A stretch of DNA of 36,195 nt, from NCBI GenBank assembly GCA_964363965.1, contig CAYIKH010000003.1:1-36195 (forward strand). Reading direction: 5' to 3'. A program made the translations under genes and the position numbers. Positions within the stretch are counted from its first letter, which is position 1, and each line of letters starts with the position of its first letter. Below are positions 4,828 through 19,926 of the stretch, in pieces. The notes beneath the pieces were generated by a model, which was given only the letters and a program-made list of their open reading frames with translations, had not been told where the DNA came from and did no database searches. This DNA is from an uncultured Candidatus Saccharibacteria bacterium (GTDB taxonomy: Bacteria > Patescibacteriota > Minisyncoccia > Sungbacterales > SURF-37).

Positions 4828-7119
4828 TTGAGTATGAATGTCTCGGCCAAGCCCGCTATTTTTGTATTTACGACGGCCTATTACCCATTTACCGGCGGCG
4901 TCGAAACTGCAATCCAGGAGGTTGCCAGGCGACTCAATCAGGAGTTTCGGTTTTTTATTTTCACCGCCCGCTTCCGCCGCGATTTACCCCGGCGCGAGGA
5001 GCGCGAAGAGGGGATAGTTATCCGTCTTGGCGCGGGCGGATTGTTTGACAAGTGGCTTCTTATAATCCTCGGGCCATTGGCGGCCATTTGGGAACGTCGG
5101 CGTTTGGATGCGCAAAGCCAGATTCTACTTTGGGGTGTTGACATATCCGTCGCTTCAGCCGCTGCCTCTTTGCTCAAGTTTTTCTGGCGTCGAGTTCCTT
5201 TTGTTCTGAATGTGCAATACGGCTACGGCGAGGAACGAATTCGACGCGGTCGCTTTGGCTTAATCGGCTTCGGCTTCCGCTTCATCCTTGCCGAAGCCGA
5301 TGCCCTTACTGCCATCAGCACCTATCTTCTTGATCTTAGTCGCCGCTTCGGCTACCGCGGTCCGGCCGAGGTTATCCATAACGGCGTGGCCCTGGAGCGT
5401 TTCCGGCCCCGGCCGGGCGAGCGCTCTAGAGGCGAGCCTCCGGTTGTCATTACCGTATCACGCCTCGTCCCGAAAAACGCCGTGGATACGCTGATTCGTG
5501 CGTTGGCTGGAGTGCGAGAGTCAGTGCCGGATGTCCGTTGCCATATTCTCGGCGATGGCCCGGAGCGCCAGTCGCTTGAAGTTTTAGCTCGTTCACTCGG
5601 TGTGGCGCAGTCACTCACGTTTTTTGGAGATGTTCCCAATGCCGATGTTCCACACCACCTTGCCCAAGCTGATATTTTCGTGCGCCCTTCGCGTTCCGAG
5701 GGCATGGGCAATGCCTTCGTGGAGGCGCTGGCCACCGGCCTTCCGATCATCGGCACGCCGGTCGGCGGGATCACTGACATTATCCGCGACGGCGAAACCG
5801 GACTCTTTAGCCGGGTGGATGATCCGGACGATCTTGCCGAGAAAATTGTGCGCCTGCTCACTAACCGGGCGCTCGCCGTAAAGATAGCGGCCAAAGGCAG
5901 GAAGATGGTCGAGAAACGCTTCTCTTGGGCCGTGATTGCCGATAAGTTCAGGGTCCTCTTTCTTCGTCAATTACGGTCTCCGGAGTGCATCCTCATTGTC
6001 ACCCCGCAATTCCCGCCAGACATTGGCGGGGCTGGCAACTACGCCAGGAATCTTGCCGCATCACTCCGCAGGCGCGGACATGCCGTAGCCGTTCTTTCAT
6101 ACGGCCTCGGCGGCAGGATGCAGTTACCCGACGGCGCCTCTCTCACCAGGGTCTCCAGCCGCATTCCTTCAGGACTGAAACATTGCATTTTTTTCATCCG
6201 CGCCTGGCAACTCGCGAGGCGGAGCGATGCGGTCGTGGCGCTGGATCCGGTCATTGTCGGCGCGCCGCTAGCGCTAGCCTGCCGCTTGCGCGGCAAACCT
6301 TTTTTGCTTCGCATTGAGGGCGATTTTCTCTGGGAATGGTATTCGGAGCGTACCGGCCGCGAGCTTACCCTCCGGCAGTTCTACGAGCGTCTCACCGGCG
6401 AGGAGCTTTCCCGAAAAGAGCGGTTCATGCTGCGGATGGCGCGGTGGGTATTTCCGCAGGCCAAGCGGCTCGTGTTTTCATCTTCGTGGCGCTGGGATAT
6501 TTTCAAGCTTGGCTATCCCTTGCGCCAAGAGCAACCAGTACTCATCGAGTCTCCATGGCCAAGGCCGGAGCCGGCGCAAGGTGCGCGCGAGCGGCTATTC
6601 GTCTTCGCCGGCCGCTTCATCCGCGTCAAGAACCTGTCGCGGCTGATCCGGGCCTTCTTGACTGCGGCGCCGCCGGACTGGCGGCTTGAGCTTATCGGCG
6701 ACGGCCCGGAGCGAGAAAATTTAAAATTTATGATTCATAATTCAGATTCGCGGAATCGGGTCATCATTCGCCCGCCAGTTGAAAAATCCGAGCTTATCTC
6801 TAAAATCGTCTCGGCCCATGCTTTTGTTTTACCTTCACTTTCAGATGTAAGCCCAAATGTTATTTTAGATTGCCTGGCCACGGCAACGCCTTTTCTTCTT
6901 ACCCAAGAATCCGGTTTTTATGAGACATTAAAAGATTTTGGTCTTTTTGTGGATCCGTTAGATGAGAAAGACATAGTCAGTAAACTCTCTATGCTCTTTG
7001 ACGCCGAGCTGTACGCCGGGTACCGAAAACGCCTCGAGCAATTCAGAGCTGATCGGTCTTGGGACAAAGTAGCTGAAGCGTGGTTAGAGCTCGTGCGAAA
7101 TGCGCTCGACGGCCAATGA
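4828..7119 (+). CDS. Tandem-fused double GT4 glycosyltransferase (two GT-B units in one 763-aa ORF)
   Basis: Unit 1 (aa 1 to ~385) has GDGPERQSL and E-X7-E (SEGMGNAFVEA). Unit 2 (aa ~390-763) has GDGPERENL but D-X7-D (SDVSPNVILD). TTG at 4828; the first ATG is at 4834. Confidence 0.85.
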   Translation: MSMNVSAKPAIFVFTTAYYPFTGGVETAIQEVARRLNQEFRFFIFTARFRRDLPRREEREEGIVIRLGAGGLFDKWLLIILGPLAAIWERRRLDAQSQILLWGVDISVASAAASLLKFFWRRVPFVLNVQYGYGEERIRRGRFGLIGFGFRFILAEADALTAISTYLLDLSRRFGYRGPAEVIHNGVALERFRPRPGERSRGEPPVVITVSRLVPKNAVDTLIRALAGVRESVPDVRCHILGDGPERQSLEVLARSLGVAQSLTFFGDVPNADVPHHLAQADIFVRPSRSEGMGNAFVEALATGLPIIGTPVGGITDIIRDGETGLFSRVDDPDDLAEKIVRLLTNRALAVKIAAKGRKMVEKRFSWAVIADKFRVLFLRQLRSPECILIVTPQFPPDIGGAGNYARNLAASLRRRGHAVAVLSYGLGGRMQLPDGASLTRVSSRIPSGLKHCIFFIRAWQLARRSDAVVALDPVIVGAPLALACRLRGKPFLLRIEGDFLWEWYSERTGRELTLRQFYERLTGEELSRKERFMLRMARWVFPQAKRLVFSSSWRWDIFKLGYPLRQEQPVLIESPWPRPEPAQGARERLFVFAGRFIRVKNLSRLIRAFLTAAPPDWRLELIGDGPERENLKFMIHNSDSRNRVIIRPPVEKSELISKIVSAHAFVLPSLSDVSPNVILDCLATATPFLLTQESGFYETLKDFGLFVDPLDEKDIVSKLSMLFDAELYAGYRKRLEQFRADRSWDKVAEAWLELVRNALDGQ
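6716..6757 (+). repeat. Degenerate 7-nt-periodic AT-rich tract inside GT4 unit 2
   Basis: aaaattt aaaattt atgattc ataattc agattcg cggaatc, directly after the GDGPE codons. Encodes NLKFMIHNSDSRN. Confidence 0.7.
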
Positions 7120-8952
7120 CTAGGGTTTTTTCATAGTGACGATGTAGCCGGTGGCCAGGAACTTGAGTCTTGTCCGCGCCAAGCTCGCCATCCGTTCTGC
7201 CGCAGCAACCGTGAGTCTGGGGAACATGCGGTCCAGCGGAAAAAGCAAGAGTTTGAAGTTGTAGCCGGCAAAATCAGTGATTTCAAACCCATATTGTCGA
7301 GCCACTCGCCGGATGGCGGCCGCGGTGTATTCGCGGTGTTGGATAGGGTGAGGTTTATGGCCGCTCAAAGCTTGGAATGCTCTCCAAGGGAATTTAAAAA
7401 TGGCCAGTAGAATACGGTTCCAGAGCCGCCAGGGGCTCCAGAGGTTCGGAAATGAGACGATGGCTCTTCCGCTTTCTTTGAGCACACGCTTGAGCTCGCC
7501 TAGGGCATGCTGGTCACTGGAAAGGTATTCAAAAACACCAAGGGCAATGGCTATGTCGCAGGATCGTTCCGGTAGTCCAAGAGCCTCAATATTGCCGACT
7601 TGGGCCTCGAGCCGCGGGTGCCTGAATCTCGCCTTGAGGAGTTCGATCATGGCCGGCGCTATATCAATGGCCATGACCGAAGCCCCGGCCTCAAGCAGTT
7701 CTTCGGTGAGCACGCCGGGCCCGGAACCGATATCAAGCACGCGCTGGTCGCGGATTGGGCCTATCATCTCAAGGGTCAGACGTTTTCGTTCGCGGAAGGA
7801 GAAACCTTCCGGAGTCGGCTCTCCGTAGGCTTTAGCATAGGACTCCGCGCTGGTTTCAAAATATTCATCAGCCGCCAGAGCTCGCCGGGGCCGGAGCAGT
7901 TGTGAAAGCATACTTCGAATACCGGTAACTGTCAGCCGAAAAAGCCGCGGGTCATCAGTGTTATCAAGCGTGAAGCGCGGCAGGACATAAGGGTTTCTAG
8001 CCGAGCCAGCCAAGTCCGGGATAGTGCTCAACGCGGCCCTAAATCCATTCTGGCGAAGTATTGCGATTGTTGAGGCGTCAAAATCGTCTGGTTGACCGTT
8101 GGGATAGGCGAAAATATCCAGAACATCCTTGAGTCGTTGGCGAAGAAGCAAATAAGAGCCGGTTATTTCTTCTTCGGCTTCCGCCGGCGTGAGCCGCGAG
8201 AGGATTGAGTGCGAGCGCGTATGGGCGCCGATGGTAATGCCAGAGCCCTGCATCTCCTTAATTTGCTCCCAGGAAAGGCCGCGGTAGGGCGAGGCCGAAA
8301 AGGTTTTTGCCAACTCGGCTCCGGCTTGATTTTCAACCGCCTCAAGCAGTTTGCTTCCGGCGCGGGCCGTAAGCAGTTTGATGCGTTGGCGGATGGTTTG
8401 GTCGCTCGCGCACCGTTCGGCCAAGGTTGAAAGCGGAAATTCGCGAAACGCCCCGTCCCACGGCAGAATAATGGAATTTTTCCGGCTGTGGCCAATGGCA
8501 TATTCCAGTCGGTCAAACCACAGCGGTTTTCCCGGTTGAACCAGGTCAGTGGCCACGAATACGCTCGCCGGGATGTTGAGCCGCCTTAAATGCGGAAAAG
8601 CGTGAGTGTAGACGTTGTCGTAGCCGTCGTCAAAAGTAATGGCCAGCGCCCGAGGCGGAAGCTGGCCTGGCCCGGCCAGCCGTTCCACCAGTTCGGCCAG
8701 GGGCAGAATAACATAATGCCGTTTTAACCAGACGAGTTGTTCGGCAAAAGCTTGCGGGCCGATGAATTTTTTACGGTAGTTGAATATGCCCTCACCCGAG
8801 CGCGGTGGAATTACGCCATGATAGAGAACAATTGTCGCCTGATCGCGGCGCGAGAGAAGGGCCAGACGCGGCAGCTGGAGGATATCGAGCGCCGTGAAGA
8901 GCCACTGCTTGGCCGTGTTTCCGGCGGCAGTTGGGAAAAATGCTATCATCAA
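7120..8952 (-). CDS. Polysaccharide deacetylase (CE4/NodB) fused to class I SAM-dependent methyltransferase
   Basis: CE4 motifs TFDDG, HTRSH and YPNG in the N-terminal ~330 aa. Methyltransferase motif VLDIGSGPGVLTEELL...AIDIAP and DIAIALGVFEYL in the C-terminal ~220 aa. TTG at 8952; the second codon is an ATG (8947-8949), the likelier start. Confidence 0.85.
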   Translation of the reverse strand: MMIAFFPTAAGNTAKQWLFTALDILQLPRLALLSRRDQATIVLYHGVIPPRSGEGIFNYRKKFIGPQAFAEQLVWLKRHYVILPLAELVERLAGPGQLPPRALAITFDDGYDNVYTHAFPHLRRLNIPASVFVATDLVQPGKPLWFDRLEYAIGHSRKNSIILPWDGAFREFPLSTLAERCASDQTIRQRIKLLTARAGSKLLEAVENQAGAELAKTFSASPYRGLSWEQIKEMQGSGITIGAHTRSHSILSRLTPAEAEEEITGSYLLLRQRLKDVLDIFAYPNGQPDDFDASTIAILRQNGFRAALSTIPDLAGSARNPYVLPRFTLDNTDDPRLFRLTVTGIRSMLSQLLRPRRALAADEYFETSAESYAKAYGEPTPEGFSFRERKRLTLEMIGPIRDQRVLDIGSGPGVLTEELLEAGASVMAIDIAPAMIELLKARFRHPRLEAQVGNIEALGLPERSCDIAIALGVFEYLSSDQHALGELKRVLKESGRAIVSFPNLWSPWRLWNRILLAIFKFPWRAFQALSGHKPHPIQHREYTAAAIRRVARQYGFEITDFAGYNFKLLLFPLDRMFPRLTVAAAERMASLARTRLKFLATGYIVTMKKP

Positions 8953-9001
8953 GATAAAAGAAGCCGAAAGGTATGATGCATGGGTAGAATATAACAGCGT
9001 G

Positions 9002-10159
9002 ATGCAAGCCGGTCAAAACAAGCTACGAGTTCTTAGCATCGGCACGGATGCGACAATTTTTGAATCTGGCGCCCCTAGCCGAACTCGCCTCCAGGCTTAT
9101 GCGCAGTGTTTGGACGAGCTACACGTCATTAGTTACACTAGTTACTCATCCCAGTTTCAAGCCGAGCACATCAGCCCCAATATCTGGTTTTACCCGGCCA
9201 GTTCCCACTTATTTTCCCTACAGCCGTTTCATGCTTTTCGGATCGGGAAACGCATTATTGGGGAGCGGAAAATCAATATTATAAGCGTTCAGGATCCGGC
9301 CGAATCCGGGCTGGCCGGATGGCTGCTTAAGCTAAAAACCGGTCTGTCGCTTCATATTCAGGTCCATGCCGATTTTTTCAGCCCGTATTTCCGCCGTAAT
9401 TCCTGGAAAGAGCGGCTCCGGTATTGGTTAGCGCTATTTCTCATTCCGAGGGGCGATGCCTTTCGGGTTGTGTCACCGCGCATCAAACATTCCCTTGAAT
9501 CAAGATTCATGATTCATGGATCAAGAATCGCGGTGTTGCCCATTTTCGTGGATCGGGAGCGGATCGCGTCGGCAGAGCCAGCATTTAATCTCCATCAAAA
9601 ATACCCGCAGTTTGACTTCATTATCCTCGTAGTTTCGCGGTTATTCCGTGAGAAGAATATTAGCCTGGCCATTGAGGCTTTTTGCGAACTTTTGAAAGAA
9701 TTTCCGAAAACTGGGCTGGTGATTGTCGGCAACGGACCGGAGCACAAGAAGTTAAAAGTTAAAAGTGAAAAGTTAAAAATTGCGGTGAGTGTTCACTTTG
9801 AGGGTTGGCAGGAGGATTTGGTTTCTTATTACAAAACAGCCGATCTTTATCTTTTGACATCGAATTTCGAGGGTTATGGCCGCACAGTTATTGAGGCCGC
9901 GGCCGCCGGATTGCCGATAATCATGACTGATGTTGGGGTGGCCGGCGAGATCATTCGTGAAGGCGAGAACGGCCGCGTGATCGGAGTAGGCGATAAAGCG
10001 TCATTTGTCAAAGCCCTGATTGAGGTCCGCCGTAATTATGCGGCAAAGCAAAAAATGGCCGAGCAGGCGCGAAGAAAAGTCATTGAAGCTGAACCTCGAA
10101 CGTTTGAGGCGTACCTTGGAGAATATCGCAAATCTTATGAAGATATTTTACGTAACTAA
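9002..10159 (+). CDS. GT4 glycosyltransferase
   Basis: Start moved to the ATG at 9002 (MQAGQNKLRVLSIGTD...), because the longer ORF from 8894 would overlap the divergent gene. GNGPE motif and E-X7-E (FEGYGRTVIEA). Confidence 0.85.
   Translation: MQAGQNKLRVLSIGTDATIFESGAPSRTRLQAYAQCLDELHVISYTSYSSQFQAEHISPNIWFYPASSHLFSLQPFHAFRIGKRIIGERKINIISVQDPAESGLAGWLLKLKTGLSLHIQVHADFFSPYFRRNSWKERLRYWLALFLIPRGDAFRVVSPRIKHSLESRFMIHGSRIAVLPIFVDRERIASAEPAFNLHQKYPQFDFIILVVSRLFREKNISLAIEAFCELLKEFPKTGLVIVGNGPEHKKLKVKSEKLKIAVSVHFEGWQEDLVSYYKTADLYLLTSNFEGYGRTVIEAAAAGLPIIMTDVGVAGEIIREGENGRVIGVGDKASFVKALIEVRRNYAAKQKMAEQARRKVIEAEPRTFEAYLGEYRKSYEDILRN
9751..9778 (+). repeat. Heptanucleotide tandem repeat (gttaaaa x4, one with t>g) inside a GT4 ORF
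   Basis: gttaaaa gttaaaa gtgaaaa gttaaaa directly after the GNGPEHK codons. Encodes LKVKSEKLK. Confidence 0.8.
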
Positions 10160-11351
10160 CGCCCGCCTCCCGACGGAAAAAGCTCATGGTTTGGCCACGA
10201 TCAAGCTCTGTGAAGCCTTTGCCAAGGAGGGGATTGAGGTCACAGTTTTTTGTCCGTGGCGGGTTAACCCCGTTAGAGGCAAGCCGCCGCCGGCGGCTGC
10301 CGCGCCATCGGTGCGGGCCTCTAACGGGGTAAATCCTCTCAAGCAGGATCTTTATGGCTATTATCGGGTCCAGCGCAATTTTAAGGTTTGCTTTTTGCCG
10401 AGCTTTGATTTTTTGTGGCTGGGATTTGGTAAGCGCTTTTTCTTTTTGCTGCAGCTTTTTTCATTTTCGAACATTGCCGCAATTTGGTTATTTTTCCGCT
10501 ACGGTATTTCCGGTCAGCTCCGTAATACAGTCATTTTTTCGCATGACCACATCCCCTTATTTTTCGTAAGCTTTTTTGCCTCAAAGATTTTTTACGACAT
10601 CCACCACTATCCCGAGGATACGCTGCTTTACCGGCGGGTTTTAGAGCGAGCCATCGGCATCGGTGTCCAGACCAGATGGAAGATTCAAAAGCTCCATGAG
10701 GATTTCGGAGTGCCGGCAGAAAAAATCGTCTATTGGCCAAACGGCACCGATATTGAGCGCTTTGACATTAGGCCTAGCGTCAAAGAGGCGCGAGCGCAGT
10801 TAAATTTACCGCAGGACAAAAGAGTTGTTCTCTACACCGGCTCGCTCCAGCGCTGGAAAGGGGTAGAGATATTACTTGAAGCCAGCCAGTTCTTGTCTCC
10901 CGAAGCGGTTGTCTACATCGTGGGCGGCAGCGAGGAGGAGATACAAAAATTCAAAATTCAAAATTCAAAATTCAAAATTAGGTTTGTTGGTCATAGGCCA
11001 TGGGCCGAAATCCCGTTGTGGCTGAAAGCCGCGGATGTTTTGGTTTTGCCCAACACCGGACGCATGAGGGTTTCGCAATATTACACCTCGCCGATGAAAT
11101 TATTTGAATACATGGCTTCGGGCCGGCCGATCGTAGCCTCGGACATTCCTTCCATACGTGAGATCGTGGATGAGACCATGGTTTTCTTTGCCACTGCCGA
11201 TGATCCAGAGTCGTTCGCTCAAGTCATCCAGCAGACACTCAACAGACCCGGGGAGGCCAGGAGTCGAGTTGAGAAGTCACTGGCCGAGGTTAAGAAATAC
11301 ACTTGGGATAACCGCGCCACACGCCTCCTGGAGCCGATGCATAAGTTATAG
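10137..11351 (+). CDS. GT4 glycosyltransferase
   Basis: Start moved to the ATG at 10137 (MKIFYVTNARLPTEKAHGLA..., a typical GT4 N-terminus), overlapping the upstream gene by 23 nt. C-terminal SPMKLFEYMASGRPIVASD motif. Confidence 0.85.
   Translation: MKIFYVTNARLPTEKAHGLATIKLCEAFAKEGIEVTVFCPWRVNPVRGKPPPAAAAPSVRASNGVNPLKQDLYGYYRVQRNFKVCFLPSFDFLWLGFGKRFFFLLQLFSFSNIAAIWLFFRYGISGQLRNTVIFSHDHIPLFFVSFFASKIFYDIHHYPEDTLLYRRVLERAIGIGVQTRWKIQKLHEDFGVPAEKIVYWPNGTDIERFDIRPSVKEARAQLNLPQDKRVVLYTGSLQRWKGVEILLEASQFLSPEAVVYIVGGSEEEIQKFKIQNSKFKIRFVGHRPWAEIPLWLKAADVLVLPNTGRMRVSQYYTSPMKLFEYMASGRPIVASDIPSIREIVDETMVFFATADDPESFAQVIQQTLNRPGEARSRVEKSLAEVKKYTWDNRATRLLEPMHKL
10264..10333. repeat. GC-rich palindromic element embedded in frame in the GT4 ORF
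   Basis: Perfect 14-bp inverted repeat accccgttagaggc (10267-10280) / gcctctaacggggt (10317-10330). The 36-nt GC-rich spacer itself contains the palindrome gccgccggcggc. Encodes PVRGKPPPAAAAPSVRASNGV between two VNP tripeptides. Confidence 0.8.
10944..10979 (+). repeat. Heptanucleotide tandem repeat (caaaatt) inside a GT4 ORF
   Basis: caaaaatt, then four perfect copies of caaaatt (10952-10979). Encodes QKFKIQNSKFKI. Confidence 0.9.
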
Positions 11352-11359
11352 TCGTGGTA

Positions 11360-11387
11360 TTGTATTTTTGCTATAATGTCGTATAAT
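11360..11387 (+). promoter_or_regulatory. Candidate sigma70-type promoter (TTGTAT - 16 nt - TATAAT)
   Basis: AT-rich gap after the GT4 stop. TATAAT occurs twice (11372-11377 and 11382-11387). TTGTAT at 11360-11365 is 16 nt upstream of the second copy. Confidence 0.35.
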
Positions 11388-11486
11388 TATATGGCTTTTT
11401 TAGGCGGCTCTTAATTTAATACAGAAATCAACCGGGATCAACGATAGAAATTCAAACAGCCGCTGATGCGGCAAGGGAGGCGGCAA

Positions 11487-12452
11487 ATGGGCAGGGTTCC
11501 GACGGTTGATGAGGTTAGGGCGCATCTCAATGCGCGCGGTCTGTTGAGACTCGTGAACGCGAGTGTGGAGCTCGTGGCCGCGCGGAATCATCTCGTATTT
11601 CGCGTGGAGAAAGCCGGGCAGGTTTTCTGCCTCCGCATGATCAACCCGGAGAGCTACCGGCGGCACGAGTGGATCACGATGGCTGAAGAGTATGCGCTCC
11701 TGCGGGCCATCGAACCCATTGGCCTGGGACCGCAGGCGTACTACCTCGACAAGCACTTCGAACCACCGTTCCTGATTCAGGAGTTCGTCCGAGCGGCGTG
11801 CTTCAACGACTTGAAGCCGCTCGCCGAGGAACACCTCACGGCCGCGGCGCGGGCCATCGCCATACTGAACGCGATGGACATCTCTCCTGCGCACTTCCCC
11901 TTCATGCGGAAGTACGTGCGGAAGGACTATGGGGGGAGCGGCCGCGTCTGGTATTTCCGGCTCTTTGACTCGCTCCGGCGTTTGCCACGGCGGGATGTTC
12001 TCCGGTGGGCCTTGCGGATTCTTCCGCTCATCGGGCGGACCATGGGGTTGCTCTCCCGTACCGCGCCGCTCCTGGGATCCGAGTTCTCCTTCCACTTCGA
12101 TGGCGCTCACTGTGGGAATACCTACTGGCGGGACGGGAGGGTACTCTTCCTCGACTGGCAAAAGGTGAGCTGGCGGAATGACCCGAGCTTCACGCTCGTC
12201 CGTTTCGCCACGTCAGCTGGCGAGGGGGGTATCGTGCCGGAGAGCGTCTGGCAGACGCTCATCGCGGCCTACACCGAAGTGCGGCCGCTTCCCGACTTCG
12301 GCGAGCTCGCTTGGGTGCGGTTTGTCGAGCGCCAAGTCGCGGATCTCGTGTGGGTTCTTTGGGATCATGCACGACGGCAAGATTCGCGGCCGGTCGAGCA
12401 AGGTACGAGCGTCGTACCGCGATACGCGGAAGTGCGGCGGATGCTCCGATAA
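11487..12452 (+). CDS. Aminoglycoside-phosphotransferase / choline-kinase-like (APH fold) kinase
   Basis: AGGGAGG at 11474-11480 lies 6 nt upstream of the ATG at 11487. Catalytic-loop-like HFDGAHCGN followed by LFLDWQ (metal-binding Asp context). Visibly more GC-rich than the flanking GT genes. Confidence 0.7.
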   Translation: MGRVPTVDEVRAHLNARGLLRLVNASVELVAARNHLVFRVEKAGQVFCLRMINPESYRRHEWITMAEEYALLRAIEPIGLGPQAYYLDKHFEPPFLIQEFVRAACFNDLKPLAEEHLTAAARAIAILNAMDISPAHFPFMRKYVRKDYGGSGRVWYFRLFDSLRRLPRRDVLRWALRILPLIGRTMGLLSRTAPLLGSEFSFHFDGAHCGNTYWRDGRVLFLDWQKVSWRNDPSFTLVRFATSAGEGGIVPESVWQTLIAAYTEVRPLPDFGELAWVRFVERQVADLVWVLWDHARRQDSRPVEQGTSVVPRYAEVRRMLR

Positions 12453-12475
12453 CTCACAAGGGAACAACTAGACGC

Positions 12476-12511
12476 GGCGGGTAGCCACTATGGGCCCGCC
12501 ATTTTTCTTTT
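12476..12511 (+). terminator. Rho-independent terminator
   Basis: Stem ggcggg (12476-12481) / cccgcc (12495-12500) followed by atttttctttt, 24 nt after the kinase stop codon. Confidence 0.55.
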
Positions 12512-12524
12512 GTTGAAAACCGGT

Positions 12525-12553
12525 TTGACCAAATCGTAGCCTGGCGTTAAAGT
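12525..12553 (+). promoter_or_regulatory. Candidate sigma70-type promoter (TTGACC - 17 nt - TAAAGT)
   Basis: Located between the terminator and the ATG at 12565. It would give a very short leader. Confidence 0.35.
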
Positions 12554-12564
12554 ATGATCGCTGT

Positions 12565-13203
12565 ATGCAGAAAAAATCCAGGGAACAAATTCAGCGCGAA
12601 TTGGTGAGGGGTTTGCTGGTTTCGCGGCGGAGGACCAAGCAGCCGGTTATTTTGGCCATGATCGGTGTTACCGGAGCGGGTCTCTCCACGGTGGCCAAAG
12701 GACTCGCCAGGCGTATTGGTTGGAGCGTGATTGAGAAGAATAGGATTCGGGTCAAGCTCCGCGAGGGAGGGCCGGGTTTCACGCCGGCCTCAACCGACCA
12801 GATCGCCTATCTCATGCTTAATCACGTCCTACGATCCAGAGGCAATGCCATTCTTGATTCGGACTGTGTAGAAAAATCAAAGCGCAAGCGCCTGGAGCGT
12901 TTGGCCAGGCGCCACAGCGGACGGGTGGTGTATCTCCACATTATCTGCGATCGCGACGTGATGATTGAGCGGATGATCCGTGCCAACTACAATCCCAAAA
13001 ACGATATTTTCAAGAGTCCGGCCATTGCCGTCCAGGAACACTGCCGACGCTATCCATGGCATTATCGTTGGTCAGCGGCTCTGGGCGGGCAATATATTCC
13101 CCGGCGGCCGCCAACTAAAGTTTTGGCCACACTCGACACCACTGGTTCTGATAAATGGAAGAAACGGCTTAAAGTAATTGCGAAGAGGTTGCGCCGAATG
13201 TAA
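12565..13203 (+). CDS. P-loop kinase-like (AAA_33 / zeta-toxin-like fold) protein with degenerate Walker A
   Basis: Walker-A-like GVTGAGLST, in which the invariant Lys is Leu (codon ctc). Overall size and layout match small nucleotide/sugar kinases. Confidence 0.55.
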   Translation: MQKKSREQIQRELVRGLLVSRRRTKQPVILAMIGVTGAGLSTVAKGLARRIGWSVIEKNRIRVKLREGGPGFTPASTDQIAYLMLNHVLRSRGNAILDSDCVEKSKRKRLERLARRHSGRVVYLHIICDRDVMIERMIRANYNPKNDIFKSPAIAVQEHCRRYPWHYRWSAALGGQYIPRRPPTKVLATLDTTGSDKWKKRLKVIAKRLRRM

Positions 13204-13231
13204 TAATGCGAGGCAGAGATGCCTCGCATTA
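13204..13231 (+). promoter_or_regulatory. Perfect 12-bp hairpin with GAGA tetraloop sequestering the SD and start codon of the downstream gene
   Basis: taatgcgaggca (13204-13215), gaga, tgcctcgcatta (13220-13231). The GAGG (13210-13213) and the ATG (13219-13221) lie inside it. The upstream stop TAA (13201-13203) abuts it. Confidence 0.75.
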
Positions 13232-14979
13232 ATGTTTGGGCAAAAATACTCCTGCGTGAACATTGGCCAGCACTGATTCTGGCGGTTCTGGTGGGTTTTA
13301 ATTTAGTTTTGCCGGCGCTTACCGCCAAGATCCGCTATGGTATTCCATTTGATAATCCGGCCAACATTCCGGTGGCGGACGAATTTTTTTATTTTGCGCG
13401 AGTACGCGAGGTCATTGACGGCCATCCCACACTAGGCAACCCCTATCTTTGGGAACATAAGTCCAAGCCGCCCTCCCCCGTGTTTCTCGGCGAATACATG
13501 GTGGCTCTTCCAATTATGGCTTGGCAGGAGCTAAGCGGAGAGACCCAACCGCGGGTCGTGGCTTGGGGGGTTTTTTACGATTTCTTCTTCCCGGTGCTCA
13601 TCACCATTCTTGTCTATGCCTGTTTAATTGCAATCACGCGGAGCAGATGGCTAAGTTTGTTGGCGGCAGTGTTGCTTCTCTGGGGATTGTTTCCAAGCGA
13701 ATTTATCCGCCTAGTTAGCCCGCAGTTTAATTTCCTTTTTTGGCTGAGCCTGTTTTTCTTGAGTTATCTTGTAATTCGGTCAAGCAGCGATTCACGACAA
13801 CGGTGGGTGTTGATATCAGCCGCGGCTCTAAACTTCGGAGCACTTTTTTACCTCTACACCTACTACTGGACGTTTTATCTTGCTTTTTTTGTCATCTTCG
13901 CGGCGCTGGCCGTGTGGAGAGGCGAGCGTGCCGCAGTGATCAACGCCGGCGCGATAGTTACCGGCGGCCTTCTCGTTGCCATTCCATATTTTCTCGTAAT
14001 GCTTCGTGCCGTTCGGTTGCCCGAATACGCCGAAACCCTCCGCCGAATCGGCATGATTGACTCGCACTTCCCTTCGGGAATTGCTATTGTCATTCCGGGA
14101 TTTCTGATTCTTGCTGTTATCTTGTGGCTCCTCCGGCGCCGCGTTATTGAGTGGAATGGCGAGACAGTCTTTTTTACCAGCGGTGTTCTGGCTGCCATTT
14201 TGAGCGTCAACCAGCACGTAATAACCGGGAAAAATCTCGAATTCTCAAGCCATTATTACCTGCTTTCGATCTTTTGGTTTACGTTCACCTCGGCCTACCT
14301 ACTGCGACGAATCGTGGAGCGTCCGTTCATCCCGCGGCACCTTGTTAAGCTCGGCGTTCTTGCCGTTACGGCCGCCATTGTCCTACCCAATCTCTATGCC
14401 TTTACCTCAAGGTTTGTCACCATGGCGCGGCCGGTGACATCTTTTGAGCGGGCTATGCCTCTTTTTAACTGGATTGACCACTCGACAACCAAGGATGATG
14501 TCGTAATGTTTATACCGGCGTCACTTTCGGGCGCCATACCGATTTACACCTCAGCCAATGTCTATTTTTCAAACGGCGCGCGGCTCTATTTTGTGTCCGA
14601 TGAGGAGCTGATTGACCGCTTCATTGTGAATCATTTTTTCACTAAAATTGACGAGGATTTGATTAGGCGAAATCAACGGGCTTTGGCCGGAGTGTATGAT
14701 ATTGATGTTGCCGGCCATGCCAAACAGGGAAACAAGTTGCGCCGTCTTCTTGGACTCAAGCCTAAGGCCGTCGAACCTTTCCCGGTATCATTGCCCGTGC
14801 GAGTGAGAGAGCGCGAAAAAGAACTCCGGGCCATGGGGTTTGAGCCTGCGCTCAAACGCTTCCGTATTGACTATATTGTTTGGGACCGTTTTGCCGAGCC
14901 GACTGCTCCATTGGCCACACTGCTGTCTCTGACCAAGGTCGCGGAAGTAAGTGATTTCGTAGTATTAGGCGTAGATTAA
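13219..14979 (+). CDS. Polytopic membrane protein, candidate GT-C-fold glycosyltransferase or glycan polymerase
   Basis: About 11-13 hydrophobic segments over 400 aa plus a ~190-aa soluble C-terminal domain. An Asp-Glu motif (PVADEFFYFARV) sits in the first extracytoplasmic loop after TM1, as in ArnT/PMT-type GT-C enzymes. Confidence 0.5.
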   Translation: MPRINVWAKILLREHWPALILAVLVGFNLVLPALTAKIRYGIPFDNPANIPVADEFFYFARVREVIDGHPTLGNPYLWEHKSKPPSPVFLGEYMVALPIMAWQELSGETQPRVVAWGVFYDFFFPVLITILVYACLIAITRSRWLSLLAAVLLLWGLFPSEFIRLVSPQFNFLFWLSLFFLSYLVIRSSSDSRQRWVLISAAALNFGALFYLYTYYWTFYLAFFVIFAALAVWRGERAAVINAGAIVTGGLLVAIPYFLVMLRAVRLPEYAETLRRIGMIDSHFPSGIAIVIPGFLILAVILWLLRRRVIEWNGETVFFTSGVLAAILSVNQHVITGKNLEFSSHYYLLSIFWFTFTSAYLLRRIVERPFIPRHLVKLGVLAVTAAIVLPNLYAFTSRFVTMARPVTSFERAMPLFNWIDHSTTKDDVVMFIPASLSGAIPIYTSANVYFSNGARLYFVSDEELIDRFIVNHFFTKIDEDLIRRNQRALAGVYDIDVAGHAKQGNKLRRLLGLKPKAVEPFPVSLPVRVREREKELRAMGFEPALKRFRIDYIVWDRFAEPTAPLATLLSLTKVAEVSDFVVLGVD

Positions 14980-14993
14980 CTTCTAGCGGGGGC

Positions 14994-15908
14994 ATGATTT
15001 TAAAGCGCCAACCAGCGGACGGACCATCGTGTCTGGTCTGTGCTAACCCAAAGACCGACTTCGATTTTGCCAAAAAGGATTTTGCCATCTACCGTTGCGC
15101 AAGATGCGGTTTCCAGTTTGTTTACCCTCCGCCGCCGGACACCGCCAGCATCTACAGCGAGGATTATTTCCGCGGGGCCAGGCACGGTTTTGGCTATGTC
15201 AACTACGATGAGGATAAGGTGGCCATGCAGGCGTTCTTTGAAGCCGTACTCAAGGCCATGGAGCGTTTATTGCCGGCAAGAGGGCAGCTTCTTGATGTCG
15301 GAGCGGCGACAGGCTTTTTCCTTAAGCTGGCCCGCGGGCGCGGCTGGGTGGTGGCCGGACTCGAAATTTCCGGCTACGCCAGCCGCCTAGCTCAGCGCTC
15401 CGGCTTGCCGGTGACCCAGGGCACCCTCCAAAGTGCCGGCTACCCATCGAATTCTTTCGATGCTGTAGTCCTCCTCGATGTTATCGAGCATCTATCCGAC
15501 CCGGCCGCATTGGTTGATCAGTGTCGCCGAATTCTCCGTCCCGGAGGGCTTCTGGTCATCAACACGCCGGATACCTCAAGCCTTTGGGCAAGAATCTTTA
15601 AATCGCGGTGGCATGCTTTCTGCCCCCCCGAACATCTTTCTTATTTCAGTCCCTCCAACCTCGGTCGTCTTTTGGACAGTCGTGGGTTTAAAATTGAGCG
15701 TAAAAGCAAGCTAGGCAAGCGATTTAAACCGGCTTATGTCTTTTCTATGCTTTCTAGATGGCAGAAGTTAAGATTATGGGAGCGGCTGGCCAAGTGGAGC
15801 GAGAGTAATTTTCTTAATCGTGTCGCTCTGCCCATAAACATCCGCGATAATTTCTTCATGATCGCCAAGAAAGGGATTGCTGCGGCTAACGACAAGCCCC
15901 GGCTTTGA
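14994..15908 (+). CDS. Class I SAM-dependent methyltransferase with N-terminal zinc ribbon
   Basis: CLVC...CARC zinc-ribbon pair, then LLDVGAATGFFL (motif I) and DAVVLLDVIEHLSDP. Confidence 0.8.
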   Translation: MILKRQPADGPSCLVCANPKTDFDFAKKDFAIYRCARCGFQFVYPPPPDTASIYSEDYFRGARHGFGYVNYDEDKVAMQAFFEAVLKAMERLLPARGQLLDVGAATGFFLKLARGRGWVVAGLEISGYASRLAQRSGLPVTQGTLQSAGYPSNSFDAVVLLDVIEHLSDPAALVDQCRRILRPGGLLVINTPDTSSLWARIFKSRWHAFCPPEHLSYFSPSNLGRLLDSRGFKIERKSKLGKRFKPAYVFSMLSRWQKLRLWERLAKWSESNFLNRVALPINIRDNFFMIAKKGIAAANDKPRL

Positions 15909-15916
15909 GTATTACT
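15905..15916 (+). promoter_or_regulatory. TTGAGTATTACT start-proximal motif (copy 1 of the 12-mer)
   Basis: Identical 12-mer to 19950-19961. It lies 8 nt upstream of ATGGCTG at 15925 and overlaps the upstream stop codon. Confidence 0.3.
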
Positions 15917-15924
15917 GAATAGTA

Positions 15925-17034
15925 ATGGCTGGCCAGAAACCAAGGATCTGCTACATTCTGCCGCGCTTTGACCCTGCTACGAGCAGCCATTTTTTCCATC
16001 TTTACGAAATGATAAATCTTGCCTCCAGGTCTTTGGATATCCGGCTGATCTTGGAGCGATCCAGCCGAAGCACCTTGACGCTTTCGGTGTCTGGCTACAG
16101 ACAAAGATTTGCTTTCCCGCCGTTACGGTTTCTTGAGCTTCTTTTCGTTCTCATTGGCGAACGCCTGTCGGGGCGGAGATTTTTCTACACCCACTACTCC
16201 TTTTACGGAGCTTTTGTCTCCTGGCTGGTGACGCGGCTTTTGGGCGGTACGGCCTATTATTGGAACTGCGGCATGCCCTGGCTCTACCGGCGATCTTTCT
16301 TTGAAGAGGCAGTGTTTCGGTTCATACTCCGCCATACCATTCTGGTAACCGGTACGGCTGGCCTGGCCGAAGAATATGCCCGCCGTTACACTCTCGATTC
16401 CAGCCATATCCGCGTAATGTCGAATTGGATTGATCTTTCTCGTTTCGAAGATGGCCGTGATCGAAAGCACTTCCGAGAGCGGCTGGGAGTTCCGGTTGAT
16501 GCCGAAATGGTGCTTTTTGTCCATCGTTTATCGCGACGCAAAGGCGTTCACCTCCTGCCGGAGATCATGGCCGAGGTTACAAAGCGCAATAGAAATGTTA
16601 TCTTTGTGATTGTTGGCTCGGGACCGGAAGAAGAAAGTTTAAGATTTAAAGTTAAAAGTTTAAAGTTGGAGCCGTATGTGCGGTTGGTGGGCGAAGTGCC
16701 GCATCGTGGTATTCCAGTTTATTTCCACGCCGCCGATATATTTTTGATGCCTTCCGAGGAAGAAGGTTTTCCGCATGTTTTACTTGAAGCACAGGCCAGC
16801 GGTGTGCCGTATGTGGCCAGCGACGTCGGCGGAGTTCGGGAGATCACGCCGCCGGAGCTAGAGCCCTCCGTTGTTGCAGGTGGAGATGTGGGAGGGCTTA
16901 CTGCCAAGCTAAGCGAGCTCCTTTTTCTGTCGGAGCGCGAACGCGCTCGCATCAGCGCTGTCGGGCAGGAGTGGGTGAAGCAGTACGACATTAAAGCTGT
17001 GCTCCCGAAGTTTTTGGAGCTTTTCCAGCATTGA
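15925..17034 (+). CDS. GT4 glycosyltransferase
   Basis: GSGPEE motif and E-X7-E (EEEGFPHVLLEA). Confidence 0.85.
   Translation: MAGQKPRICYILPRFDPATSSHFFHLYEMINLASRSLDIRLILERSSRSTLTLSVSGYRQRFAFPPLRFLELLFVLIGERLSGRRFFYTHYSFYGAFVSWLVTRLLGGTAYYWNCGMPWLYRRSFFEEAVFRFILRHTILVTGTAGLAEEYARRYTLDSSHIRVMSNWIDLSRFEDGRDRKHFRERLGVPVDAEMVLFVHRLSRRKGVHLLPEIMAEVTKRNRNVIFVIVGSGPEEESLRFKVKSLKLEPYVRLVGEVPHRGIPVYFHAADIFLMPSEEEGFPHVLLEAQASGVPYVASDVGGVREITPPELEPSVVAGGDVGGLTAKLSELLFLSERERARISAVGQEWVKQYDIKAVLPKFLELFQH
16637..16671 (+). repeat. Degenerate heptanucleotide tract inside a GT4 ORF
   Basis: gtttaag atttaaa gttaaaa gtttaaa gttggag directly after the GSGPEEE codons. Encodes SLRFKVKSLKLE. Confidence 0.75.
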
Positions 17035-17139
17035 AATCCAAATGCCAAAATCCTAATGTCAAATAAAGCTCAAAATTCAAAATCCAAAACATTTGAGCTT
17101 GGGGCTTTAGATTTGGTTTGACCTTTGGACTTCGGATTT
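17035..17139. repeat. Intergenic heptamer-array imperfect palindrome
   Basis: The left arm is 7-nt periodic, C-rich and G-poor (aaatcca aatgcca aaatcct aatgtca ... ttcaaaa tccaaaa). The right arm is its approximate complement (tttggtt tgacctt tggactt cggattt). The inner perfect 9-bp stem is aagctcaaa (17066-17074) / tttgagctt (17092-17100). Confidence 0.75.
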
Positions 17140-17897: not shown

Positions 17898-18026
17898 CCA
17901 AAATTCCAAGCACCAAGCACCAAATCCCAAACAAATCCCAATGACCAAAATCCAAAATTCAAAACACGTTTGGAATTTCGAATTTTGAATTTGTTTCGAA
18001 TTTCGAAATTCGGATTTCGAATTTCA
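17898..18026. repeat. Intergenic heptamer-array imperfect palindrome (largest copy)
   Basis: The left arm (17898-17966) has only 3 G in 69 nt (ccaagca ccaagca ccaaatc ... caaaatc caaaatt caaaaca). The right arm (17968-18026) is tttggaa tttcgaa ttttgaa tttgttt cgaattt cgaaatt cggattt cgaattt. Confidence 0.8.
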
Positions 18027-18028
18027 CT

Positions 18029-19768
18029 TTGAGTATGAGTGTACTACGAAGACCCATCTTCTTGATTCTGTTTGTTGCCATAATCTTGCGGCTTTGGGGG
18101 ATTGGTTATGCTTTGCCCCAGTTTTTTGTAAATGACGAGCGGGCCAATATCTACGGGGCACTGAAGATGCTTGAGCTTAGAACCCTTGTTCCGGCCTGGC
18201 ATGAAGAAGAATTCCGTAAAGTCCTTTATTATTCGCCCCTGCCCTCGTATTTCTATCTGGTGACGCTAACACCGGTGATTGGCGTACATTATCTTATCTC
18301 CGACGCCGCTGACTTGGCCGAATACAAAAACCGGCTGGCGATTGATTCTGGTTTTATCTTCCTTGCCGCGCGGATCCTGGTGGCTCTGATCGGCGTGGCG
18401 AATATCTATGTCATCTATCTTTTCAGCCGCAAGCTTTTCCAGAGCGAACGCGCCGGCCTCCTAGCGGCGGTGTTTCTTAGCCTTTCTTTCTTTCACGTTC
18501 AGCTTTCTCATGTCACCCGTCACTGGTTGATTGCGACGTTCCTTATATATCTTGCCTGGCTTGCCGTGCTTGGTATCTACCGTACTGGGGCGCTGAGGTA
18601 TTATTTGGGGGCTGGAATAGCGGCTGGCTTGGGCGTTGGGACAAATTCGGCTTCGGCCGTGGCCATGGTGCCGTTGACATTGGCTCATATTTTGCGCGAC
18701 GGCAGCGCGTCTTTTATCCGACGTCTTTTTGGCCGACGATTGATTATTTCGCTCGCGGTCTTCGCGTTCCTGGCCGCGATCCTGATCGCCCTTTACCCCT
18801 ACGGCTTTACCCAAGGCGAAGTCGGTCCAGCCGGAACCGGATTTTTCCTTGGCGGCAAATGGAGAGCATTGGCAGCAAAAAGTTTTTCCGGCTGGCTAGC
18901 CTTTCTTTGGGAGTACTTTAAGTTGCTCCTGCGCTATGAGTGGCCTATTTTCATTACCGCTTTAGTCGGAGGTATCTTGTTTTTGCGTCGGGACTGGCGT
19001 TGGGTAGTAATCACTACCGCCTTTGTTGCGGTCTACCTTACGCTTCTTTATCTCTTTTTCGTCCGCATACCCCGGGGAATGATTTTTATCCTGCCCGGAC
19101 TTGCGGCTTTTGCCGGCTACGGGTTGGATCGTCTTATTCTCTGGTGCCAGAATCGTTTTCGTCCCGCCTTGGTGAGTATATTTTTGATCTTTGGATTTTG
19201 CTTTTTAATTTTCTTTGCTTGGCCTCTGGCTGTTGTGCTCCGTTATGATTATCTCTTGAGCCGCGATGACACCCGAATTCTTGCCAAGAACTGGATTGAG
19301 CGCGAGATCTCTCCGGGTAGCAAGATTCTCACTTATCTTCCCACCCTCCGTCTTAACAACACCCCAGAAGGAGTTCGCCAGTTGGATGAGATTGATTCCT
19401 CGGCTCTGCGTGCTTCTGATCGCGCAATATTAGCTTTGGGCAAGGCCCCATCTCCGGCGTACGCCATACTAAATCTTCATTTCCTCACTTCCGACATTCC
19501 GCTCCGGTCACTTTTGGATCCGGCTGCATTTCGAGCTATGGGCTATCGTTATCTCGCAGTTGAGTATCTTTACCCGGATCAACGCGATCTTGACCCGCAG
19601 GCCCGCTCCCTTGCGTCGCAGGGCCGGCGCGTCGCGCGTTTCGACCAATTTGGCGCAAAGACATTCGAGTATGCCCTAGACATTCGCGGAGAGGTGGATA
19701 CGGTTAGACCCGAGCATCTGTTTTTCATCGATCGTTTTGGGCCGATCGTGGAGATCTATGAACTATAA
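18029..19768 (+). CDS. GT-C glycosyltransferase of the ArnT/PMT (GT39/GT83-like, PMT_2) type
   Basis: Multi-TM N-terminal ~400 aa with NDE in the first loop (FFVNDERANIYGALKM), plus a soluble C-terminal domain. TTG at 18029; the first ATG is at 18035. Confidence 0.8.
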   Translation: MSMSVLRRPIFLILFVAIILRLWGIGYALPQFFVNDERANIYGALKMLELRTLVPAWHEEEFRKVLYYSPLPSYFYLVTLTPVIGVHYLISDAADLAEYKNRLAIDSGFIFLAARILVALIGVANIYVIYLFSRKLFQSERAGLLAAVFLSLSFFHVQLSHVTRHWLIATFLIYLAWLAVLGIYRTGALRYYLGAGIAAGLGVGTNSASAVAMVPLTLAHILRDGSASFIRRLFGRRLIISLAVFAFLAAILIALYPYGFTQGEVGPAGTGFFLGGKWRALAAKSFSGWLAFLWEYFKLLLRYEWPIFITALVGGILFLRRDWRWVVITTAFVAVYLTLLYLFFVRIPRGMIFILPGLAAFAGYGLDRLILWCQNRFRPALVSIFLIFGFCFLIFFAWPLAVVLRYDYLLSRDDTRILAKNWIEREISPGSKILTYLPTLRLNNTPEGVRQLDEIDSSALRASDRAILALGKAPSPAYAILNLHFLTSDIPLRSLLDPAAFRAMGYRYLAVEYLYPDQRDLDPQARSLASQGRRVARFDQFGAKTFEYALDIRGEVDTVRPEHLFFIDRFGPIVEIYEL

Positions 19769-19926
19769 ATTTCTAAATCCTAAACTCGAAATTCGAAACA
19801 AATGACGCGGAGCGTCATCCTGAGCGAAGCGAAGGATCTCGTTGGAGTTCCTTCGGGCTTCGCCCTCAGCATGACCCGCCTCGGGCAGGTCAGTTTAGGA
19901 TTTCGGATTTCGTGCTTCGGATTTTA
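19769..19926. repeat. Intergenic heptamer-array palindrome with a nested GC-rich hairpin
   Basis: Left arm aaatttc taaatcc taaactc gaaattc gaaacaa. Right arm agtttag gatttcg gatttcg tgcttcg gatttta. Perfect 12-bp inverted repeat aaatcctaaact (19775-19786) / agtttaggattt (19892-19903). Confidence 0.75.
19814..19875. repeat. GC-rich imperfect hairpin (REP/MITE-like palindromic unit)
   Basis: gtcatcctgagcgaagcgaagg ... ccttcgggcttcgccctcagcatgac. The stem is ~21 bp with one mismatch and two 2-nt bulges, centred between the AT-rich arms. Confidence 0.7.

Follow-up and report, generated by a model that had tools for sequence, protein, structure and literature searches.

In the glycan-synthesis cluster of a patescibacterial genome, four glycosyltransferase family 4 (GT4) modules carry AT-rich tracts of 7-nt tandem units in place of one and the same surface helix. 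The cluster lies at 4.8–27.5 kb of the 36,195-nt stretch of DNA that was analysed (contig C3 of the genome denoted G000; hereafter the window). The tracts are probably coding members of a heptanucleotide repeat family that pervades this order of Patescibacteria, i.e. DNA entities on which the protein acts only as a filter. We likewise favour the view that the GT4 helix is a particularly tolerant site and that the tracts are passengers, kept where the protein tolerates them.

Period-7 tracts in four GT4 modules

The source genome comprises 651 kb in 66 contigs with a GC content of 54% and an estimated completeness of 98%. Its proteins are nearest to metagenome-assembled genomes named Candidatus Sungbacteria, Parcubacteria and Paceibacterota, and other assemblies of the same population originate from Hainich groundwater. 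Seven of the eight GT4 C-domain modules of the genome are encoded in the glycan cluster of the window and the eighth on contig C1; the cluster further encodes a GT2, a GT-C/PMT-like enzyme and a flippase-like gene. The tracts are located in four genes on the + strand: a fused double GT4 gene (4828–7119), the 8894 gene (9002–10159), the 10020 gene (10116–11351, for which public records start at 10116 or 10137) and the 15925 gene (15925–17034). The Pfam families PF00534/PF13692 match all four genes and identify the GT4 C-terminal domain (Glycos_transf_1). The N-terminal GT4 families PF13439/PF13579 match three of them, the 15925 gene having matched the C-terminal families alone.

An earlier note on this DNA had described four AT-rich tracts of period 7 in these modules, and both Tandem Repeats Finder (values in brackets) and the identity at a lag of 7 nt find them where it had placed them, on the + strand. 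Tract 1 (6716–6757) follows the motif GDGPE of unit 2 of the fused gene. It consists of two aaaattt units (6716–6730, 2.1 perfect copies) followed by a second, degenerate unit family (atgattc ataattc agattc) and codes for ENLKFMIHNSDSRN. Tract 2 (9749–9778) in the 8894 gene is an aagttaa array (period 7, 4.3 copies, 91% matches) that codes for KLKVKSEKLK. Tract 3 (10943–10979) in the 10020 gene reads caaaaatt and then four times caaaatt, i.e. about five near-perfect units (10946–10979, period 7, 4.9 copies, 100% matches), and codes for QKFKIQNSKFKI. Tract 4 (16634–16671) in the 15925 gene follows GSGPEE, is composed of aaagttt, aagattt and aaagtta units (16634–16667, period 7/14, 85–92% matches) and codes for SLRFKVKSLKLE. 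The Lys-rich peptides that had been quoted for the tracts (KLKVKSEKLK, KFKIQNSKFKI, LRFKVKSLKLE and LKFMIHNSDS) are translated correctly.

For tracts 1 to 4 lag-7 identities of 0.60, 0.88, 0.90 and 0.71 were obtained, compared to 0.1–0.4 at unrelated lags (3–5 and 9–12) and side-lobes of 0.4–0.6 at lags 6 and 8. The AT content of the tracts is 76–86% and thus contrasts with the base composition of the genome. All four start 1–3 codons past the G-x-G-P-E strand, as had been claimed, with the correction that the motif of the 10020 gene is GGSEEE and not GxGPE. In unit 1 of the fused gene, which has the canonical helix LEVLARSLGV, and in the GT4 modules at 21417 and 26239 Tandem Repeats Finder detected no period-7 array, in agreement with their description as tract-less. 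An array at the helix after GxGP is therefore present in 4 of the 8 GT4 modules of this genome. Taking about 71 coding arrays over about 590 kb, i.e. roughly 0.01 arrays for each segment of 48 nt, we made a rough estimate by hand that 4 of 8 modules would carry an array at this one segment by chance with a probability of about 7e-7.

The position of the tracts on a predicted structure was obtained from an AlphaFold2 model of the 9002–10159 product (26-sequence alignment; predicted local distance difference test score, pLDDT, of 92). The model adopts the GT-B fold with two Rossmann-like domains, its top Foldseek matches being the solved GT4 enzymes BshA, MshA, PimA and WaaG (E 1e-15 to 5e-23). 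Tract 2 codes for the surface helix after the GxGP strand: strand 242–247 is followed by helix 253–262 (KKLKVKSEKL, pLDDT above 90) and strand 269–272. The GPE motif and the next strand (V-x-F/L-x-G) are separated by 16 aa in the tract-less unit 1 and in three tract-bearing modules alike. Since this segment is the same with and without a tract, the tract replaces the helix rather than adding a loop or an insertion.

The period is kept in orthologues while the peptide varies

Orthologues of five GT4 families (137 sequences) were drawn from 60 relatives belonging to the same family and to four other families of the order. A strong array was defined by at least 17 of 21 lag-7 matches in the DNA under the aligned helix. 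Such arrays occur at the helix in 17 of the 30 sequences of the 8894 family, with units other than that of this genome: (ctacaag)x4-5, (ctacaaa)x4, (aattatc)x4, (aaaactt)x5, (aaagttt)x5, (acaactt)x5, (aaatttc)x4, (gaattat)x4 and cagttac. For the 10020 family 10/30 sequences were positive (ccaaatt, gcaaagc, accctaa and others) and for the 15925 family 7/17. The unit 2 family yielded 2/30, and the unit 1 family, tract-less in this genome, also 2/30 plus several weaker arrays. Orthologues of unit 2 with gaatcta-type arrays at the helix are L080, L081 and L087. When each peptide was recoded synonymously 500 times, most strong arrays exceeded the resampled lag-7 identity at p<=0.006 and a few just at p=0.02–0.03.

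Orthologues with 7-nt arrays of their own at the helix come from about 54 of the related genomes. The helix peptides differ among the orthologues, and what persists is the period together with a hydrophobic residue at positions i and i+7. As the peptide is unconserved and the lag-7 identity exceeds that of synonymous recoding, the signal is carried by the DNA and not by the protein. Ordinary protein-level selection had been expected to leave a kept peptide with free synonymous sites and no period; the outcome was the opposite.

These data bear directly on the proposal that selection acts on the protein in favour of a Lys-rich amphipathic helix for membrane association, the AT-rich period being incidental. 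In line with the proposal, the membrane is where GT4 enzymes act, and the peptides of this genome are Lys-rich. At the same place, however, orthologues code for YKLQATSYKL, NYQLSIINYQL, LQLTTNNLQL or YELRIMNYGL, i.e. for Tyr/Gln/Thr-, Asn/Ile- or Leu/Thr-rich peptides, and a heptad peptide needs no 7-nt period in its DNA. With neither lysine nor peptide conserved and with a DNA period beyond resampling we rejected this option, whose remaining probability is close to negligible.

Whether or not an array is present, the helix segment is as long as in this genome in 26/30, 16/17 and 30/30 members of three families. In the L038 orthologue exactly 21 nt are missing at the site. Judging the alignments by eye, we observed no frameshift at an array among the 137 GT4 sequences. 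Stops were flagged within a number of TrmD and GT4 matches; they probably stem from reading through the DNA ahead of the start codons and not from the arrays.

Arrays and nested palindromes at few positions of the GT4 fold

Over the 137 GT4 genes the arrays are almost confined to a few alignment positions, minor sites being found in one or two sequences each. Three or four sites on the protein surface account for nearly all of them, above all the helix after GxGP (hot-spot A). Hot-spot B, where the last helix of the N-domain ends, precedes the VLPIF/NGVD strand, and hot-spot C is the inter-domain linker after NGVDxxxF. A fifth array is located at hot-spot B of the 8894 gene, before the strand VLPIFVD (9496–9518, + strand, tgattca type, coding LESRFMIHG); orthologues have cattcag x4, cattcca x4, gtacgga x3 or in-frame palindromes at this site. 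The eighth GT4 gene of the genome (contig C1, - strand) possesses a near-perfect (ggtcact)x4.9 array in its N-domain (52344–52377), which codes for ASLVTGHWSLVT. A second array of this gene (SKAQNLKFKV) lies just upstream of the GxG strand, one structural element before hot-spot A, so that this GT4 has its arrays in two loops additional to the hot-spots.

At all hot-spots some orthologues have GC-rich palindromes that replace the arrays or are nested in them in frame. Near-identical GC-rich hairpin inserts, which differ in two bases, were found in L005/L033 (genome G008) and L039/L100 (G027), the two genomes belonging to separate families and the GT4 genes being different ones. Their core gccgaggctacggc lies within ccgcc[tc]t?cgccgaggctacggcggg, and the inserts are in frame and nested in heptamer arrays. 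More nested GC-rich hairpins are present in L035, L074, L087, L177 and L178. A cccgacgcccgaagggg-type hairpin related to the inserts of G008 and G027 was seen in L112, a GT4 gene, and in L178, a TrmD gene. The helix after GEGP is the exact site of an in-frame insert in the 8894-type orthologue L030 (G023), an imperfect palindrome that measures about 140 nt and codes for about 50 residues.

The few amino-acid differences between close strains of the population gather at hot-spots A and C, which are thus relaxed sites. The sequence L219 from a second assembly is identical to the window up to 9393, after which its last ~100 nt (about 9394–9499), ending at the hot-spot B array, have about 75% identity. 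This end looks like a chimeric join with a related organism, or else a divergent allele.

Units are shared between loci and between genomes

The repertoire of units is specific for the individual genome. Sites with (ctacaag)x3 are absent from G000, whereas about 4 distinct loci were found in G034 and about 8–11 each in G030, G043 and G012. In G030 a stretch of 2.3 kb has ctacaag arrays in unit 1, in unit 2 and in the 8894-type gene, i.e. in three GT4 modules. Among 66 strong arrays, units agreed with at most 1 mismatch in 23% of pairs from different loci of the same genome (permutation p = 0.003), in 23% of pairs from the same locus in different genomes (p <0.0005) and in 7% of unrelated pairs, where kinship of the genomes inflates both statistics. 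Given the sharing at both levels, descent at the locus and exchange or re-seeding within the genome both seem to act.

The earlier note had also considered the tracts as recombination hot-spots, at which GT4 modules exchange their C-terminal parts (module shuffling). The sole sign of this is the presence of one array in paralogues of the same genome, as for ctacaag in G030. There the edges of the array bound the sharing and the flanks are unrelated. A crude comparison of the identities upstream and downstream of the tract gave no breakpoint: the two correlate with r of 0.58–0.76 in three families, while the unit-1 family reaches 0.21. In two families the sequences that deviate most are cut short by contig ends. 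Assembly contigs do end at arrays (9499 and 6758), but any repeat is expected to break contigs. We therefore consider module shuffling highly improbable.

Heptamer repeats throughout the genome

The tracts belong to a much larger set of repeats. Of the 491 arrays that Tandem Repeats Finder reported genome-wide, 172 have period 7 and another 38 period 14, the next commonest periods accounting for 49, 44 and 41 arrays. For the loci of the relatives (614 kb) the corresponding numbers are 101 of 169 arrays and 27, such that 7-nt tandem units, in arrays of about 3–5, are over-represented against other periods in both sets. After merging, 71 of 178 arrays of this genome lie within long open reading frames (ORFs). 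The arrays are about 15-fold denser outside genes (107 in about 60 kb of non-coding versus 71 in about 590 kb of coding DNA); they are thus mostly intergenic, yet the coding share is unusually large. More than 50 canonical units are in use, and the top four (AAAATTC, AAATCCT, AAAAGTT and AAAAATC) make up 45 arrays.

According to Pfam the coding arrays reside in genes such as those for class I and II aminoacyl-tRNA synthetases (ValS/IleS/LeuS-type and ProS/ThrS/AlaS/PheT), GatA, GatB, TrmD, TsaD, LepA, UvrC and PolX. One and the same loop of TrmD orthologues contains gtcaaaa, gcaaagc, gcgacaa, aatcaaa or gtgacaa arrays, palindromic arrays or GC hairpins. For GatB the tblastn matches of the relatives are interrupted at residues 128–158, the site of the array in this genome. 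In LepA a whole 98-nt palindromic array element with an A-rich and a T-rich arm is read in frame (G000:C5:835–932, + strand) and adds about 33 residues to the GTPase domain. Palindromic in-frame elements thus occur in LepA here and in orthologues of G023, G008 and G027. The four GT4 tracts, in contrast, consist of one arm only, change no length and resemble such elements at the level of the unit only.

Between the genes a dispersed family of hairpins of 130–160 nt was found in at least 25 copies, several of them at contig ends. Their plan is an outer AAATCCT-type array, AAACAAAT, an inner CCAAAAT-type array, a CACGTTT centre and the inverse arms. The window holds three unstranded intergenic elements that likewise consist of inverted heptamer arrays. 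The first is a hairpin of inverted heptamer arrays at 17034–17139. The second, a palindrome at 17898–18026, shows the full plan (outer array, aaacaaat, inner ccaaaat array, cacgttt centre, inverse arms), and the third, at 19769–19926, has a nested GC-rich hairpin. The GT4 tract units caaaatt and aaagtta recur as units of intergenic elements, in line with the relationship to the intergenic palindromes that had been noted from the sequence: the tcaaaat units at 17070–17089 equal the tract-3 unit, and G000:C8:2562–2665 is an aaagtta-type palindrome. Hairpin elements probably cause much of the fragmentation of the assembly. A shared repeat arm, cgcgcggcggtcagtttaggatttagaaattaggatttaggattt, was seen at contig ends, near the start of C35 and C44 (25–55 in each) and at the end of C8 (20608–20638). 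The 15925 product of a close strain, P0127, reads ...FQHWKLRFG past the stop, which does not match the window downstream of the gene (17032–17040); the boundary of the first hairpin element thus differs between strains.

The arrays might instead be functional nucleic-acid elements that are incidentally translated, either as sites for a single-stranded heptamer-reading protein or as signals for RNA processing or stability. The intergenic copies form long hairpins in the spacers of co-directional genes. Cold-shock-type proteins bind one heptamer each, and the binding of CspB to heptamer repeats has been reviewed and post-transcriptional roles have been proposed for TAACTGA repeats (PMC4679880). 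About four units are preferred, as for the GGGNATC repeats of Xanthomonas and Nostoc (PMC4692102). The coding tracts, however, have no nearby inverted partner, and no Rfam family matched the elements at 16.5–20.2 kb of the window. Furthermore, a sequence-specific reader does not fit units that differ widely between loci and genomes. Taken together, a function as nucleic-acid element appears improbable.

Probable origin of the arrays and proposed filtering by the protein

The imprint of the protein on the coding arrays is visible in their sequence. In 55 of the 71 coding arrays the sense strand is the A-rich one, and among the residues that the arrays encode lysine is the most frequent (18%). 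A perfect (aagttaa)n array has an in-frame TAA, and the third unit of tract 2 deviates exactly there (gtGaaaa), as do other aagttaa-type coding arrays in the same way. Array imperfections hence coincide with stop-codon avoidance.

For a repeat family of the DNA that is filtered by proteins, replication slippage would create the arrays and keep their units homogeneous, and conversion from array to array or re-seeding from the pool of the genome may add to the homogeneity. An excess of heptamers has been ascribed to polymerase slippage with a contact of roughly 7 nt (PMC4679880). For the mismatch-repair proteins MutS (PF00488) and MutL (PF01119) no match was obtained in the genome, which is estimated to be 98% complete. 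Nor was a Y1 transposase or reverse transcriptase able to mobilise the arrays found in it.

A structural reason for the tolerance may be that three 7-nt units equal 21 nt and thereby 7 residues, i.e. about two helical turns. An array of three or more units would code for the same cyclic heptapeptide in any frame. A given residue, and with it the hydrophobic one, would always point to the same side of the helix, and the array could overwrite an amphipathic surface helix at constant length. Such heptad coding by any array would explain why arrays are tolerated at the amphipathic surface helices of hot-spots A and B. Of the three options in the earlier note, repeated capture of an intergenic repeat at a permissive surface helix comes nearest to these data and is borne out in so far as the units come from the repertoire of the genome and the site is permissive; plain insertion was not seen, the length being constant.

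Several points weigh against a family of DNA repeats that are mere passengers. The mechanism that would renew an array at constant length is conjectural, and in essential genes the renewal cannot proceed via frameshifted intermediates. Plain insertion does not fit the unchanged length of the helix. The kinship of the genomes inflates the unit-sharing statistics. In addition, several array-bearing genes within one glycan locus together with one out-of-frame allele look like a contingency locus. That allele comes from a short contig of low coverage and may reflect a de Bruijn collapse of the 35-nt repeat and not a real allele. A more far-reaching idea, which we regard as rather unlikely, is that of order-wide, self-renewing "heptad cassettes". 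Their units would be rewritten at fixed length with a 7-nt register provided by the replisome or an unknown factor, and they would act as frame-independent, helix-compatible modules and as ON/OFF switches in dispensable glycan genes.

A length variant of tract 3

As a by-product the arrays would be mutational hot-spots, since with one unit gained or lost the enzyme would end short of the catalytic motifs in its C-terminal part. Five sequences make up the 90%-identity cluster of the tract-3 gene product, among them P0123 (300 aa, from a 1961-nt ENA contig), which lacks one unit. Over its 300 residues P0123 is identical to the predicted product minus one caaaatt unit: it ends with ...QKFKIQNSK followed by LGLLVIGHGPKSRCG and a stop, before the catalytic half of the enzyme, and has 300 aa instead of 411. 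Given this identity slippage probably occurs at tract 3. The entry itself represents a natural allele produced by slippage or else a collapse of the 35-nt repeat in an assembly of low coverage. A search of metagenome contigs for the tract-3 flanks with a variable gap gave no match, and a search for the contig behind P0123 via neighbouring or remainder products encoded in the window returned the known contig alone, or nothing.

The variant raises the question of phase variation. In this case the GT4 tracts would be selected contingency loci, at which slipped-strand gain and loss of units toggles the glycosyltransferases and varies the surface glycan of the episymbiont, e.g. against phages. Repeated minus-one/plus-one cycles would then have left their trace in the constant ON length and in the homogenised units. 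The precedent is neuO of E. coli K1, in which 3–53 AAGACTC units stand near the 5' end, the gene is ON when the unit number is divisible by 3 and 66% of genomes are OFF (PMC13001214). Like neuO, the tracts have a 7-nt unit within the coding region of a glycan-modifying enzyme, the frame depends on the number of units, and in-frame units code for 7-residue repeats. The unit length is not divisible by 3, the tracts lie mid-gene, upstream of the catalytic C-terminal half, and one glycan gene cluster holds four or five of them. Tract 3 has about five near-perfect units and a public allele that is exactly one unit short and ends after 300 aa. Moreover, the site keeps arrays across the order while the units turn over at fixed length.

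Other observations disagree with selected switching. Arrays, site conservation and unit turnover are the same in essential genes, in which an OFF state is lethal: instead of being confined to dispensable surface genes, arrays occur in aminoacyl-tRNA synthetases, GatA/B, TrmD, TsaD and LepA. Only 3–5 units are present mid-gene at fixed length, far from the range of neuO, and every GT4 orthologue examined by eye is ON. Tracts 1 and 4 are too degenerate for good slippage. Tracts 2 to 4 are identical in the second assembly, and tract 2 is so in a close strain as well. The lone OFF allele, finally, may be an assembly artefact or a deleterious variant. We thus hold selection as contingency loci to be unlikely, although it is a live rival and ranks above a nucleic-acid function, module shuffling and a selected Lys-rich helix, and the reading of constant length and homogeneous units as the trace of switching cycles to be equally so.

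Relation to known repeats

Among known repeats, the nearest are heptamer repeats of cyanobacteria, Xanthomonas and Beggiatoaceae, a poorly understood group that includes the short tandemly repeated repetitive (STRR) sequences of heterocystous cyanobacteria, GGGNATC (PMC4692102) and the TAACTGA repeats of Beggiatoaceae and cyanobacteria (PMC4679880). These also are tandem 7-nt units, usually in 2–6 copies with about four preferred, in hundreds of sets per genome and mostly between genes. Stops in some frames limit their placement in coding DNA, and a few coded copies lie in surface loops, as for LSVINYQLS in an RpoC-like protein (PMC4679880). A survey of simple repeats in bacteria by Mrazek et al. 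(2007) is cited in PMC4692102 and PMC4679880. The arrays described here differ in that many units exist per genome with none dominant, that about 40% of the arrays are intragenic, essential genes included, that the same protein site is held across the order while the unit changes, and that the arrays at the GT4 helix overwrite a secondary-structure element at constant length.

The palindromic copies are closest to Rickettsia palindromic elements (RPE), reportedly described by Ogata et al. in 2000 as selfish repeats inserted in frame, and to small dispersed repeats of cyanobacteria, which Elhai et al. are said in 2008 to have found nested in heptamer arrays of Nostoc. Nested GC-rich hairpins of small size are common to Nostoc and to the inserts of G008 and G027; here, however, the nesting also occurs within reading frames and adds 7–50 residues at GT4 hot-spots. 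RPE and the intragenic repetitive extragenic palindromic (REP) sequences (PMC3733652), as in-frame selfish repeats, are dispersed between genes and lie in frame at surface positions of housekeeping genes with the fold kept, as the LepA element does. The four GT4 tracts are unlike them in not being palindromic, adding no residues and having only 7-nt units in common, and no transposase partner was found in this genome.

Our literature search found no paper describing in-frame heptamer or hairpin repeats in Patescibacteria. What is new is the mapping of structural hot-spots across five GT4 families, the overwriting at constant length, the genome-specific repertoires of units and a candidate slippage allele. 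Heptamer repeats, held to be intergenic and unexplained, can thus occupy a secondary-structure element of an enzyme over evolutionary time while their sequence turns over, for which the equality of 21 nt and one heptad offers a possible structural reason. Annotators of Patescibacteria genomes can use this as a rule where otherwise normal genes contain odd low-complexity, AT-rich or Lys-rich stretches or are interrupted by contig breaks. Tract 3 represents a testable candidate for glycan-gene switching in an uncultivated episymbiont lineage.

Further arrays

A T-rich array (atttttg x4.7) is located within the GT-C/PMT_2 membrane enzyme of the window (19180–19212, + strand) and is read as IFLIFGFCFLIF; its T-rich strand probably codes for a transmembrane segment. 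On contig C6 of the genome an uninterrupted ORF of 1246 aa (11864–15601, - strand) contains the halves of a class I aminoacyl-tRNA synthetase (tRNA-synt_1, Anticodon_1 and DUF5915) with a complete histidine-phosphatase domain (His_Phos_1, residues 553–729) between them and at least three heptamer arrays.

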